A stretch of 12,430 nt of DNA from a virus: IMG/VR virus record IMGVR_UViG_3300045988_027468. One strand, written 5' to 3'. This document shows, in pieces, positions 1-12,430 of the stretch (position 1 is the stretch's first letter; each line of letters opens with the position of its first letter). Made by a program: the position numbers and the translations under genes. A model generated the notes under the pieces. That model searched no databases and had not been told where the DNA came from. It saw only the letters and a program-made list of their open reading frames with translations.

Positions 1-55
1 TTAACACTGTTAAAAATCACTAATTTTGTTAACTTTTCGTCTGTTTTTATTAACT
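1..55 (+). repeat. Terminal 55-bp unit, copy 1 of a direct repeat (copy 2 at 174-228; mirrored at 12376-12430 and 12203-12257)
   Basis: ttaacactgttaaaaatcactaattttgttaacttttcgtctgtttttattaact is identical at 1-55 and 174-228. It begins with the interrupted palindrome TTAACAcTGTTAA (1-13). Confidence 0.95.
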
Positions 56-173
56 AGGTACACAAGGCACCCTATTTTAACATTCCAACACATATTTAAC
101 AGTTGCTAACACTTTGGCACGCTTTTTGCTGTGTGCCGCAATTACGATTATTTAACACATTTAACATTGTTAA

Positions 174-228
174 TTAACACTGTTAAAAATCACTAATTTT
201 GTTAACTTTTCGTCTGTTTTTATTAACT
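174..228 (+). repeat. Internal copy of the terminal 55-bp unit, 173 bp inside the genome end
   Basis: Exact 55/55 match to 1-55. It is preceded by a third TTAACAtTGTTAA palindrome (161-173), which creates GTTAATTAAC at the junction (169-178). Confidence 0.95.
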
Positions 229-245
229 TTTGCCTGTCTATTATT

Positions 246-287
246 GTTTCACGTGGAACAACCTGTTAGTAATGTTTCACGTGAAAC
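246..287. promoter_or_regulatory. Pair of CACGTG-core palindromic sites at the inner ITR edge: GTTTCACGTGgAAC (246-259) and perfect GTTTCACGTGAAAC (274-287)
   Basis: The 14-bp perfect palindrome is read directly. The same 14-mer recurs at 5134-5147 and 12144-12157. Putative operator or protein-binding site; function is inferred only. Confidence 0.5.
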
Positions 288-339: not shown

Positions 340-371
340 TTTGGTGGTTTCGCAAAAATGCAGTATCTTTG
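340..371 (+). promoter_or_regulatory. Left inward promoter, Bacteroides-type (-33 TTTG at 340-343, 20-nt spacer, -7 TAtcTTTG at 364-371)
   Basis: Matches the Bacteroides primary-sigma consensus TTTG / TAnnTTTG with 19-21 nt spacing. The 40-mer 338-377 is 34/40 identical to the reverse complement of 12054-12093. Confidence 0.6.
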
Positions 372-5108: not shown

Positions 5109-5120
5109 AATATGTTAAGA

Positions 5121-5162
5121 CAGGGTAAAAATTGTTTCACGTGAAACATTTTCCCTGTTTTA
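5121..5162 (+). terminator. Large imperfect hairpin (cagggtaaaaattgtttcac / gtgaaacattttccctg) followed by a T tract; terminator of the replication/packaging module
   Basis: The stem arms are read directly. The hairpin core is the 14-bp palindrome GTTTCACGTGAAAC (5134-5147). The T-rich run ttttatttgg follows. Confidence 0.6.
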
Positions 5163-5194
5163 TTTGGTCGTTTCAGATATTTTGTTTATCTTTG
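5163..5194 (+). promoter_or_regulatory. Middle promoter, Bacteroides-type (-33 TTTG 5163-5166, 20-nt spacer, -7 TAtcTTTG 5187-5194), driving the morphogenesis module
   Basis: Same architecture as the terminal promoters and the same flanks (ATTTGGTnGTTTC ... TATCTTTGCA). Confidence 0.6.
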
Positions 5195-5421: not shown

Positions 5422-6575
5422 TGAAAAAAGAGAATCTTTATAACTTGTATCAAACACAGGTCAAAGACAAAGATACAGCTTTGGACACGTTCTTTCAGCG
5501 AGTTCTTTGTATGACCTCAAAGATGTTTGTGTACACAGGTTTGCCCGATTCGATTCCACAGATAGAACTTGAAAAGATTCTGCAAACTAGTGGAAATGTA
5601 GGAATCGCAAAAGTTAACGGTGAACTATATGCACTACAGGGAAACAGGGGTGGCAAATGTGATGCCTATTACAGGGGAAAAGATTTTATTGTCGCAAATC
5701 CGTGGCTAGAATTGAATAAAACGTACAATATCGGAAAAGATATTGTTGTTATCAATAACACACCGTTTGCAGATTCGATTCTCCCTGTTATCGGGAAATA
5801 TGGTGTACTTTACACAGACGCAGTTATTACTTTAAATATGACTAGCGTTTTAACTAGAATCACTATGTTAATATCTGCTAGTGATGATAAAACGAAACAG
5901 AGCGCAGAATCTTTCCTCAAAAAGATTCTGGACGGTGATTTCTCGGTAATTGGTGAAAATGCGTTTTTCAAAGGTGTTAATATGCAAACACCACCAACAC
6001 AGAGCAACCAGCAGATAACGCAGTTAATAGAACTTTTGCAGTACTATAAAGCGTCAATGTTTAACGATTTGGGGTTGAACGCAAACTATAATATGAAACG
6101 TGAACGTTTGAACACGCAAGAGGTTTCTATGAATATAGATGCGTTAATGCCTTATGTTGACGCAATGTTAACAGAACGTGTTGAGGGTGTTAAGCGAGTT
6201 AACGAAATGTTCGGTACAGACATTACCGTAACTTTGGGTTCTAGTTGGAAAATTGAACACGAAAATTATTTATCGTTACTCAAATCCACAGAAGAGGGGC
6301 ACGAACACACCGAAACAGAAGATGTTGACCCTGTAACCGAAAACGAAAATGAGGAAACAGATGAAACAGAAGAAACGCAAGAAACAGAAGAAACGGAAAC
6401 AGAAACAGAAGAAACAGAAGAAACAGAAGAAACGGAAACGGAAACAGAAGAAACAGAAGAAACAGAAGAAACGGAAACGGAAACAGAAGAAACAGAAGAA
6501 ACAGAAGAAACGGAAACGGAAACAGAAGAAACAGAAGAAACAGAAGAGGAAAAGGAAAACAAAGATGAAGATTAA
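5421..6575 (+). CDS. Portal (head-tail connector) protein, phi29 gp10-like, with a roughly 90-aa acidic Glu/Thr low-complexity C-terminal extension (384 aa)
   Basis: Block resemblance to recalled phi29 gp10 (LP..I....LEK.L...G.VG; vvINNtpFa; N...K+ER+.T.EVS.N; N+.+G..+.V). The C-terminus is ...ETEETEETEETETE... repeated. Confidence 0.8.
   Translation: MKKENLYNLYQTQVKDKDTALDTFFQRVLCMTSKMFVYTGLPDSIPQIELEKILQTSGNVGIAKVNGELYALQGNRGGKCDAYYRGKDFIVANPWLELNKTYNIGKDIVVINNTPFADSILPVIGKYGVLYTDAVITLNMTSVLTRITMLISASDDKTKQSAESFLKKILDGDFSVIGENAFFKGVNMQTPPTQSNQQITQLIELLQYYKASMFNDLGLNANYNMKRERLNTQEVSMNIDALMPYVDAMLTERVEGVKRVNEMFGTDITVTLGSSWKIEHENYLSLLKSTEEGHEHTETEDVDPVTENENEETDETEETQETEETETETEETEETEETETETEETEETEETETETEETEETEETETETEETEETEEEKENKDED
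6390..6545 (+). repeat. Tandem repeat, 39-bp unit x4 (gaaacggaaacggaaacagaagaaacagaagaaacagaa), inside the portal 3' end
   Basis: Units start at 6390 (1 mismatch), 6429, 6468 and 6507 (three identical). Each is in frame and encodes ETETETEETEETE. They sit within a broader GAA/ACN-rich tract, about 6316-6560. Confidence 0.9.
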
Positions 6576-8857: not shown

Positions 8858-10728
8858 TGGCAAGTTATAAAATTAATTATCACTTAACAAACTGTACTAC
8901 TACAGCCGCAAGTAGTGAAAATTACGACACAGACGGTAATGTTATAAAGTTTTGCGGAAAAGCTGTTGACGGTTGTTATTTTTTACCAAATGACGGTGAC
9001 TATAATTATATTTCACGTCTGAGTGGTGGAACAACAAAAGTTACACATTTTAATCTGTCACGTGTTTCTGCTAGTGACAACTCAAAAGTTATTAGCGGTG
9101 ATATTGACGGTATTTCATCAGATGGCAAGTATTTTTCAAAACGTTTGACGTTTGGAACAGCCAACAGCGGTGAAATGGAATGTTACTTAAACGCACGTGG
9201 TGGAACACCTACAGTTAAAACGTTAAAGATACACAATAACGTTTCGGGAACAAATGCCGTTTCGGTGCAAAACGATACAAATTTCGATATTACGTTGACA
9301 GGTGACACAGACGGTACTTTTACGGTTGTTCCTGTAGTTACTTACAAGAACACGTATAACGAAACCGCACAGGGAACAATGAACGTTAAAGGTAACGTAG
9401 CTACATTTAGTGTTCCTGTAGAAACAAACGAAGAGGTAACAATAAACGGAACGTTCACACCGAAACCGAAAGAGTTAACAATAACAAACCACGTTTCGGG
9501 AACTACTGCAACCTATGTGCAAAACGGTGAAAATTTCGATATTACGTTGACAGGTAACACAGATGGTAGTTTTTCTGTTGTTCCTGTAGTTTCGTATAAA
9601 AACGAAAGTGGAACGGAAACCACAGATGAAATGAACGTTAACGGTAAAACAGCTACATTTAGTGTACCTGTTGCGACAAACGACACAGTAACCATTACAG
9701 GAACGTTTAAACCCGAAAAGCCACAGAAAAACGTTCCTATTACTTATGCGTTGACAAATTGTACCGTTTCACCACAGCCACAGACAGTTAAAACAGGGGA
9801 AACTTTAAACTTGACTGTCACACCTGTTATCAATTACAAACTAGATTCGTGCAATCTTATTTGGAATGACGGAACGAAAGATATTACGATAAGTGTTACA
9901 GGTGGTGTTATTTCGTTCCCTGTGCCCGATTCTTGCGTTTCTGTGACGATTAAAGCTGTAGCTAGTATAATAACGCCTGTTGGTAGAAATTATGGTGCTA
10001 TAAACGTTTATTGCGTGACGCTTGACAATTTGGACGCATTTTCTAAACAGCGTTTCTTTGAAATAAAAGATGATACACAGGGAATCTATGAAGAGGTTAA
10101 TTTAGGAATCTATGTAAATCGTATCAAACGCATTTTCACAAACGTTCCTGTATCGGGGTCGGATTCTTTGCGGTGTGGTAACTACAACACAGGTATAACG
10201 GTACAAACACCCGAAAAAGACATTATAATGCTAGACTTTGGCAATGTGACGTTAACAGGTTTGAACGGTGATTCGGAAGACTATAACGCACAAATTTCGG
10301 TGTTCATTCCGTGCCGTGGCTTTGTCGCTATAGATAGTAAGTATATCGGTAAAACGGTAAACCTATCTTTCAAAGTGAACGTTATTACAGGTGATGCGGT
10401 AGCGTTTTTGTCCTGTGATGGCGTTATCTTTCAGTTAGAAAGTTTTTCTTTGTCACGTGATGTTATTTACAAGACAGGAACAACAGAACTTAATATCGTA
10501 GGCGGTACGCAATGGGACGAACAAATTTTGTATGGTTTAGAACCTTATGTTATTATCACGCAGAACACTACAATAAACAAGCCTGTGAACAATACACAGG
10601 AAACCGTAACAATAGGGGACGTGACAGGCTACGCACAGTTTGAAAACGTAGATTTGAACACGGTTAATTTGTTGGTCGATGAGTATAACACCATTATTTC
10701 AGAACTTGAAAACGGTGTTTATCTATAA
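8857..10728 (+). CDS. Multi-domain tail protein (623 aa): probable receptor-binding/tail-knob protein with tandem beta-sandwich-like repeats
   Basis: Two adjacent ~84-aa repeats (aa 121-204 and 205-289). Two further modules both open with an LTNCT motif (aa 10-14 and 299-303). The C-terminal end GYAQFENVDLN..EYNTIISELENGVYL resembles the recalled gp9 C-terminus NYVQTKD..DLQEIRTIFDNGITLW. Confidence 0.8.
   Translation: MASYKINYHLTNCTTTAASSENYDTDGNVIKFCGKAVDGCYFLPNDGDYNYISRLSGGTTKVTHFNLSRVSASDNSKVISGDIDGISSDGKYFSKRLTFGTANSGEMECYLNARGGTPTVKTLKIHNNVSGTNAVSVQNDTNFDITLTGDTDGTFTVVPVVTYKNTYNETAQGTMNVKGNVATFSVPVETNEEVTINGTFTPKPKELTITNHVSGTTATYVQNGENFDITLTGNTDGSFSVVPVVSYKNESGTETTDEMNVNGKTATFSVPVATNDTVTITGTFKPEKPQKNVPITYALTNCTVSPQPQTVKTGETLNLTVTPVINYKLDSCNLIWNDGTKDITISVTGGVISFPVPDSCVSVTIKAVASIITPVGRNYGAINVYCVTLDNLDAFSKQRFFEIKDDTQGIYEEVNLGIYVNRIKRIFTNVPVSGSDSLRCGNYNTGITVQTPEKDIIMLDFGNVTLTGLNGDSEDYNAQISVFIPCRGFVAIDSKYIGKTVNLSFKVNVITGDAVAFLSCDGVIFQLESFSLSRDVIYKTGTTELNIVGGTQWDEQILYGLEPYVIITQNTTINKPVNNTQETVTIGDVTGYAQFENVDLNTVNLLVDEYNTIISELENGVYL
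9217..9723 (+). repeat. Intragenic tandem duplication (~252 bp x2: 9217-9468 and 9469-9723) encoding two related ~84-aa domains
   Basis: KTLKIHNNVSGTNAVSVQNDTNFDITLTGDTDGTFTVVPVVTYKN...ATFSVPVETNEEVTINGTFTPKP versus KELTITNHVSGTTATYVQNGENFDITLTGNTDGSFSVVPVVSYKN...ATFSVPVATNDTVTITGTFKPEKP. Confidence 0.9.
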
Positions 10729-10730
10729 AA

Positions 10731-10766
10731 GAAAAGGGACGGTAACAAATACCGCCCCTTTTTTCT
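10731..10766. terminator. Bidirectional intrinsic terminator between the convergent rightward and leftward modules
   Basis: The stem gggacgg (10736-10742) pairs with ccgcccc (10752-10758) with one mismatch. It is flanked by gaaaa upstream and tttttt downstream, so a U-run follows the hairpin in both orientations. Confidence 0.7.
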
Positions 10767-12059: not shown

Positions 12060-12091
12060 CAAAGATACGACTTTTTCACGAAACTACCAAA
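12060..12091 (-). promoter_or_regulatory. Right inward promoter, Bacteroides-type (minus strand: -33 TTTG = 12088-12091, 20-nt spacer, -7 TAtcTTTG = 12060-12067)
   Basis: The reverse complement reads aatttggtagtttcgtgaaaaagtcgtatctttgcagcag, 34/40 identical to the left promoter 338-377. Confidence 0.6.
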
Positions 12092-12143
12092 TTATTTTTG
12101 TTAATAGTTCTTAAATTAAAAATTTTAATCTTTTTAACAAAAC

Positions 12144-12185
12144 GTTTCACGTGAAACATTACTAACAGGTTGTTCCACGTGAAAC
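12144..12185. promoter_or_regulatory. Mirror pair of CACGTG-core palindromes in ITR-R: GTTTCACGTGAAAC (12144-12157) and GTTcCACGTGAAAC (12172-12185)
   Basis: Read directly. They sit 53 nt upstream of the right promoter -33 element, the same distance as on the left. Confidence 0.5.
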
Positions 12186-12430
12186 AATAATAGACAGGCA
12201 AAAGTTAATAAAAACAGACGAAAAGTTAACAAAATTAGTGATTTTTAACAGTGTTAATTAACAATGTTAAATGTGTTAAATAATCGTAATTGCGGCACAC
12301 AGCAAAAAGCGTGCCAAAGTGTTAGCAACTGTTAAATATGTGTTGGAATGTTAAAATAGGGTGCCTTGTGTACCTAGTTAATAAAAACAGACGAAAAGTT
12401 AACAAAATTAGTGATTTTTAACAGTGTTAA
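12144..12430. repeat. Right inverted terminal repeat (ITR-R), 287 bp
   Basis: Perfect reverse complement of 1-287. The window ends exactly at the repeat end, as expected for a complete linear replicon. Confidence 0.95.

Follow-up and report, generated by a model that had tools for sequence, protein, structure and literature searches.

Both the parS element itself and the carriage of a host parS by a ParB-less phi29-like phage, namely phi29, are already known. Small protein-primed podoviruses are regarded as strictly lytic, and the use of Spo0J and parS by phi29 has so far been ascribed to adaptation to sporulation. Livny et al. 2007 is reportedly the reference survey of how parS is distributed. 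Five parS sites on the phi29 genome are bound by host Spo0J, moving the infecting genome into the forespore, according to the account of Meijer et al. 2005 relayed in PMC2731898. A review describes TGTTNCACGTGAAACA as the highly conserved chromosomal centromere-like site for ParB/Spo0J, and the consensus given there is the one that we use for scoring. This same consensus was used in the OMM12 Hi-C study, which found ParABS homologues and origin-proximal clusters of parS in the Bacteroidales B. caecimuris and M. intestinale; our search of the literature on ParB and parS in Bacteroidetes returned nothing specific beyond that study. A 2024 review of phi29-like phages makes no mention of parS or Spo0J.

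The DNA analyzed here, referred to as the window, is the complete linear genome of a protein-primed podovirus of the phi29/Astrithrvirus kind (~12.4 kb; 12,430 nucleotides). It encodes a protein-primed family-B DNA polymerase (PolB, PF03175, 1760-3970) and a phi29-type packaging ATPase (Gp16, PF05894, 3972-5108) as well as holin-like, upper collar connector, major capsid and tail fibre proteins, with an M15 peptidase and small ORFs on the opposite strand. Membership in the phi29-like podoviruses is indicated by PolB, the Gp16 ATPase, the upper collar connector, inverted terminal repeats (ITRs) and a gene order that is collinear with Astrithrvirus (L427, astrithr) and with Acinetobacter phage Phanie (L426). 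The latter phage is dependent, according to a review, on the tail of a helper myophage. The nearest cultured relatives are Astrithrvirus-like phages of Gram-negative bacteria; all PolB matches in the phage collection are below 60% identity, and the best of them (42-47%) all come from phages that infect Gram-negative hosts. A megablast search of the phage collection with the entire window gave no match, the small ORFs (55, 121, 223, 81, 71 and 108 aa) have no family in Pfam or PHROGs, and searches for more distant relatives with P0121 and P0122 gave 0 and 1 locus, respectively. Several structural features of the genome may be recorded as well. In the C-terminus of the connector (6306-6575), ~5 units with a period of 39 nt make up a long acidic tandem repeat, ETEETEETEET, and the tail-fibre gene (623 aa) contains at 9205-9713 two 252-nt direct repeats of 77-79% identity that encode duplicated domains. 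Additionally, a hairpin with a 13-bp stem and T runs on both strands lies at 10732-10762 between the convergent late and right-arm operons and looks like a bidirectional terminator, comparable to TD1 of phi29.

The features on which our analysis centers are as follows, with scores giving the number of positions that agree with TGTTNCACGTGAAACA.

1 to 287, plus strand: left ITR as assembled, with perfect left-right identity
245 to 260, minus strand: predicted outer left parS, TGTTTCACGTGGAACA (reverse complement TGTTCCACGTGAAACA), 16/16
273 to 288: predicted inner left parS, TGTTTCACGTGAAACT, whose core at 274-287 is a perfect 14-bp palindrome, 15/16
340 to 371, plus strand: left early promoter of the Bacteroides type, TTTG-N20-TATCTTTG
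5116 to 5162, plus strand: RNA hairpin that carries the internal parS at its tip and leads into a U-rich tract, -19.3 kcal/mol, z = -4.2
5133 to 5148: predicted internal parS, TGTTTCACGTGAAACA, a perfect 16-bp palindrome, 16/16
5163 to 5194, plus strand: internal (late) promoter of the Bacteroides type
12060 to 12091, minus strand: right early promoter of the Bacteroides type
12143 to 12158: predicted inner right parS, mirror of 273-288, 15/16
12144 to 12430, minus strand: right ITR as assembled, mirror of the left
12171 to 12186, plus strand: predicted outer right parS, mirror of 245-260, 16/16

An earlier note on this DNA had drawn attention to a 14-bp palindrome, GTTTCACGTGAAAC, and its coordinates prove right: exact copies occur at 274-287, 5134-5147 and 12144-12157, and copies with one mismatch at 246-259 and 12172-12185. 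The note had also considered a chance origin effectively impossible, and this holds as well, with five matches at two or fewer mismatches where 0.12 are expected and none of 200 shuffles reaching five. Because the ITR copies mirror one another, the number of independent sites is three and not five. When one flanking base is added on each side, the 14-mer is, as a sequence, the canonical 16-bp chromosomal parS, TGTTNCACGTGAAACA. The five 16-bp dyads match this consensus at 15-16 of 16 positions, and a search of both strands at three or fewer mismatches gave 10 matches versus 1.1 expected, a count reached by none of 200 shuffles. The inner left site is the final element of the perfect ITR and the internal site lies between the packaging-ATPase gene and the late promoter. 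On the strength of this match, we consider it very probable that the palindromes are ParB-binding parS sites.

Variation among relatives follows what is expected of a parS. Approximately 175 related genomes retrieved from IMG/VR, which fall into two clades, retain the motif in position, with 1-5 sites per ITR just outside of the terminal promoters and with diverged flanks, so that the positional conservation anticipated by the earlier note is observed. In 80 close relatives (PolB 89-99% identical) the left promoter has 1-5 sites just outside of it, the internal promoter is usually preceded by one, and the right end has about two. The internal site is retained in 78 of 81 close genomes. One-mismatch end sites in these 81 genomes are predominantly GTTCCACGTGAAAC (249/281), which differs solely at the consensus "N" position, T to C; for internal one-mismatch sites, 7 of 26 differ only at this position. 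The T that flanks the sites on the 5' side is nearly invariant and the neighboring bases are variable. A more distant genome (L430, 81% identity) has 2+1+2 perfect 16-mers, and in the P0083 clade, whose PolB is ~66% identical to that of the window, 256 of 257 sites are TGTTTCACGTGGAACA. This clade has two sites per ITR, 42 bp apart, in flanks that cannot be aligned to those of the window, and no internal site. Changes thus cluster at the degenerate "N" and the core CACGTG and the GTT/AAC arms are invariant, where the invariance of the core is partly built in by gathering sites at up to 1-2 mismatches and the bias toward the "N" position is not.

The element is not universal. No sites occur in L299-L301, which have complete, adapter-abutted ITRs of 377-617 bp, nor in the cultured relatives Phanie, astrithr and Vibrio K58 g2, and a further genome (L298) has the internal site alone. 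The existence of related genomes with complete ITRs and no sites indicates that the element is accessory to the lineage, though strongly conserved where present, and for the same reason we rejected an essential replication-origin element as an explanation.

The motif also occurs well outside of this lineage. A search of IMG/VR with the exact 14-mer matched at least 120 contigs (L081-L200). Among the matches listed, 22 of 120 carry it in 2-5 copies (for example L088, L111, L148, L188, L100, L113 and L172) and 15 of 120 encode a protein-primed PolB that is only 22-35% identical to that of the window. Several further listed contigs carry phi29-type ATPase, connector or capsid genes. Phi29-like phages account for ~19 of the 120 matches listed. 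Most of the listed matches extend to the 16-18-bp form ATGTTTCACGTGAAACAT, and those with 2-5 exact copies of this form are unrelated viruses with GC contents from 30% to 69%. A control palindrome of the same composition, GTTTCAGCTGAAAC, gave 0/120 multi-copy contigs and 0/120 with PolB among the matches listed. Recurrence of the 14-mer, and not of the control, in multiple copies in PolB phages suggests that a host-type parS recurs in phi29-like phages generally.

What would bind these sites? Neither ParB nor any other DNA-binding family was found among the window ORFs with Pfam and PHROGs, and tblastn with B. subtilis Spo0J as probe gave no ParB match in the window or in ~300 fetched loci, the stretches fetched from the 14-mer contigs included (the probe sequence was validated against PDB 6sdk, E = 3e-121). 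The window therefore shows the phi29-type combination of multiple host-type parS sites and no phage parB, and the simplest reading would have host ParB as the binder. The spacing of neighboring sites in relatives is 27-29, 35-39 or 42 bp; together with the varying copy number, this variation is more readily reconciled with loading sites that act independently than with a paired operator bound cooperatively.

The identity of the host bears on this reading. None of the 15 gene starts has a Shine-Dalgarno sequence, and this, like the -33/-7 promoters, suggests a host in the Bacteroidota; judging from these signals, a Bacteroides host is plausible. A sigma-70 promoter scan of the window was uninformative. 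Two contigs with PolB 98% identical to that of the window, L202 (QHMG01000022.1) and L203 (CAAFVD010000052.1), are assigned to Melainabacteria/Gastranaerophilales bins of GTDB metagenome-assembled genomes (MAGs) from two separate projects. These bins are at odds with the promoters and the missing Shine-Dalgarno sequences and may represent either a binning artefact or a hint of the host.

Our preferred reading is that the phage borrows host ParB via its parS sites, chiefly for partition or persistence of its DNA, to which we assign a probability of roughly 0.6. Upon infection, host ParB dimers would load at the phage parS sites and spread over the small genome, and the resulting partition complex would tie the phage DNA to the ParA/SMC segregation machinery of the host. 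Where lytic growth slows or stalls, phage genomes could thereby be positioned and inherited by daughter cells, and a carrier state would result. Since the site clusters lie just upstream of promoters, the ParB complex may secondarily damp phage transcription. That partition or persistence is the main use of the sites is, taken by itself, a tentative proposal which we would put at slightly below even odds. We hold as doubtful, though worth stating, the more far-reaching version in which the ParABS of a non-sporulating Gram-negative gut host would partition this "virulent" phage as a linear, terminal-protein-capped episome, providing a plasmid-like carrier state that involves no partition, integration or repressor genes and in which the parS pair, protected by selection, sets the end of the ITR.

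A different use of the same host protein is suggested by the surroundings of the sites. Known ParB-family repressors such as KorB regulate from operators that are near to or far from promoters. Every site cluster in the window is upstream of one of three almost identical promoters, whose -33 TTTG starts at 340 (plus strand), 5163 (plus strand) and 12091 (minus strand), with the left one driving the 55-aa and 121-aa ORFs, a putative terminal protein, PolB and the Gp16 ATPase. At the left and right ends alike, 53 nt separate the -33 element from the end of the inner palindrome, the distance given in the earlier note, and for the late promoter the gap to the end of the internal palindrome is 16 nt. 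From the inner site to the -7 box the distance is ~88-90 nt in two clades despite diverged intervening sequence. Given these fairly conserved distances, a transcriptional role could be the primary one, with a ParB complex upstream of the three promoters silencing or tuning phage genes according to host state, and KorB is structurally related to ParB (PDB 8qa8). We nonetheless judge a primarily transcriptional role to be unlikely. The genome has just three non-coding stretches and a promoter resides in each, so the co-location of sites and promoters is partly forced and the link is weaker than it appears. Furthermore, the distance of the inner site from the -7 box ranges from 81 to 117 nt among close relatives, and the P0083 clade has no site at its late promoter. 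To our knowledge, chromosomal ParB is generally not a promoter-specific repressor, which also counts against this role.

The internal site has an additional constraint. It forms the apex of the hairpin at 5116-5162, which runs into TTTTATTT directly before the late promoter and whose outer stem covaries among relatives (ACGGGGG/CCCCCGT, ACAGGGG/CCCCTGT and GACAGGG/CCCTGTT). From these sequence features the hairpin is probably the intrinsic terminator of the early operon; a simple terminator scan missed it because its loop and stem geometry falls outside of the rule used by the scan. The internal site would consequently serve a double purpose. Such a context is confined to this site, as the ITR palindromes are upstream of promoters, have no U tract and most commonly occur as an asymmetric variant, and we therefore rejected the view that they are mere hairpins or terminators.

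A third explanation takes the palindromes as DNA structures for replication or ITR maintenance, forming hairpins in displaced single strands or template-switch points by which the ITR is defined and homogenized, with no dedicated binder. This explanation draws on how the repeats end. Left-right identity is perfect over 1-287, and a degenerate similarity extends to 377 (93% over 377 nt). The earlier note had the identity ending within the palindrome; the boundary is indeed at the palindrome, but it falls on the last base and not inside. The coincidence is borne out in most of the genomes compared, with perfect identity stopping 0-12 nt past the inner site in ~100 of 140 relatives from both clades. 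In addition, a 14-bp stem can form between two neighboring sites (-23.5 kcal/mol, z = -5.5). We consider a purely structural role very improbable, however, as the commonest variant, TGTTCCACGTGAAACA, breaks the perfect dyad and yet is a known parS form, related genomes replicate with no sites at all, and both the exact identity to parS and the presence of the motif in unrelated phages are left unexplained. Moreover, in the genome that has the internal site but no ITR sites (L298), the ITR stops directly after another conserved box.

The boundary thus seems to follow whichever conserved element is innermost. Beyond the inner site, the two ends of close relatives are ~67-73% alike over the next 60 nt, diverged but related. 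We infer that end-to-end homogenization proceeds inward from the termini and halts at the innermost block held identical at the two ends by selection, and that all sequence farther in would be free to drift. A direct mechanical role at the boundary is possible, for example if the palindrome prompts template switching or if ParB acts as a roadblock. The finding suggests a simple rule for where ITR boundaries are placed in such genomes.

At the outer end of the repeat, the assembly and the true terminus probably differ. Bases 1-55 are a perfect second copy of 174-228, mirrored at the right end by 12376-12430 and 12203-12257. The genomes of more than 10 relatives terminate in AAAGGTAC, which abuts an Illumina adapter or lies at the end of the contig, and this terminus, which is similar to the phi29 terminus AAAGTA, aligns to the window at ~53-56. 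The true terminus of the window is therefore probably near 53-56 and the real ITR probably ~232-235 bp; the outermost ~55 bases may be artefactual, introduced by assembly, the alternative being a real terminal extension.

Other repeated words were observed in the ITRs. Each contains an inward-pointing TGGCACGCTTTTTGC (115-129 and 12302-12316), an exact match to the sigma-54 -24/-12 consensus TGGCAC-N5-TTGC. Sigma-54-like boxes number 1-4 per ITR in all clades, including those that have no parS, and are nearly absent elsewhere in the genomes; the last of them is the conserved box that bounds the ITR of L298. A sigma-54 promoter and a binding site of a phage replication protein are candidates for their role. 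The assembled end begins with a dyad, TTAACAcTGTTAA (1-13), and TTAACA/TGTTAA words are very frequent across the ITR (1-300). TTTAACA words near the true terminus are kept in relatives, and words of the TTAACA type may be binding sites of a phage replication protein.

Host ParB could also be the target and not the tool. Hundreds of phage genomes with five sites each would draw the protein off the origin region and upset chromosome segregation, SMC loading or division, which would favor the phage, and there are multiple high-affinity consensus sites on a high-copy replicon that has no phage ParB; some titration would be unavoidable if ParB binds. Such a decoy is nevertheless quite improbable as the purpose of the sites. 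A benefit of titration to a lytic phage has no support, the phi29 sites are tied to segregation of the phage genome and not to host damage, and neither placement in the ITRs nor variation in copy number would be explained.

Least probable of all is that the dyads are operators at which a phage-encoded dimeric regulator, the product of a small ORF, binds cooperatively at paired sites, for although there are paired dyads upstream of promoters and several small ORFs that have no detectable family and could encode a DNA-binding protein, the motif is the universal parS of hosts to the letter and its variants follow parS degeneracy, 1 to 5 copies occur per end with no conserved helical phase in their spacing, no phage ORF tracks the motif, and the exact motif is also present in PolB phages of just 22-35% identity. 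The earlier note had favored this arrangement, reading the pairs as operators about 2.5 helical turns apart, with the small phage proteins among the candidate binders. A probable protein-binding dyad survives from that proposal; the classical paired operator does not, since the sites are 15-16/16 identical to parS and their spacing is not fixed. The 28 bp in the window correspond to ~2.7 turns and are not conserved in relatives. As for the small proteins, genomes that have no sites nonetheless encode homologues of the 55-aa and 121-aa products and of the putative terminal protein. Homologues of the conserved small proteins are also kept in the P0083 clade in spite of its missing internal site, and this clade has ITR sites but not the right-arm ORFs. 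No phage protein that co-occurs with the motif was found among the compared genomes. A CRP/FNR-like or Cra-like operator was likewise considered and rejected, as its half-sites are arranged differently and the palindrome matches parS exactly.

The likeness to phi29 is close. The phi29 genome (EU771092) contains four exact copies of TGTTCCACGTGAAACA and one degenerate copy, and this 16-mer is identical to the outer ITR site of the window. Both genomes have five sites and both belong to protein-primed phi29-like podoviruses that have no ParB gene. Even one location corresponds, in that the phi29 parS at 17243-17258 starts at the base that follows the stop codon of the ATPase gene and precedes terminator TD1 (17262-17301), comparable to the window site at 5133-5148. 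The arrangement of the remaining sites is different, however. In phi29 the ITR is only 6 bp and four of five sites fall within genes of the right half, whereas in the window all sites are non-coding, four of five are in the ITRs and each is upstream of a promoter. The window PolB is only distantly similar to that of Bacillus phages. Additionally, the host of phi29 sporulates, whereas that of the window appears to be Gram-negative-like and presumably does not, so that spore entrapment is an improbable outcome here and a role in segregation is proposed by analogy only.

Chromosomal ParABS systems, in which parS lies near oriC, share with the window the same consensus, the same tolerated variable position and the clustering of copies near replication origins, which in the window are the genome ends. 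They differ in that the window is a 12-kb linear, multi-copy, terminal-protein-capped viral replicon that has no parA or parB.

The phage-plasmids P1 and N15 also have centromere-like dyads on a phage genome, as does the window, and those of N15 are dispersed, near promoters, and affect gene expression in addition to partition. P1 and N15 bring their own ParA/ParB (Sop) proteins and have private centromere sequences, whereas the window has no partition genes and carries the universal site of the host. The KorB-OB operators of plasmid RK2 are alike in pairing a ParB-family protein with a palindrome at varied distances upstream of promoters. KorB, however, is a plasmid-encoded repressor with an operator sequence of its own. 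Adenovirus ITRs provide a precedent for host-protein sites in a protein-primed linear genome, with sites for NFI and Oct-1, one of them a dyad, that lie within ~50 bp of the terminus and stimulate initiation. By comparison, the sites of the window lie farther in, at ~190-235 bp from the true end, and related phages can do without them.

That parS is present in a widespread lineage of gut phages with a host that does not seem to form spores, as well as in many distant PolB phages, suggests that borrowing of host partition is a general persistence strategy of this group of viruses, and this idea offers a testable handle on the stable coexistence of lytic gut phages with their hosts. Relative to what is described for phi29, the new elements are an Astrithrvirus-like gut lineage with an apparently non-sporulating host, paired parS sites at the inner edge of long ITRs, and evidence that the trait is common among PolB phages.
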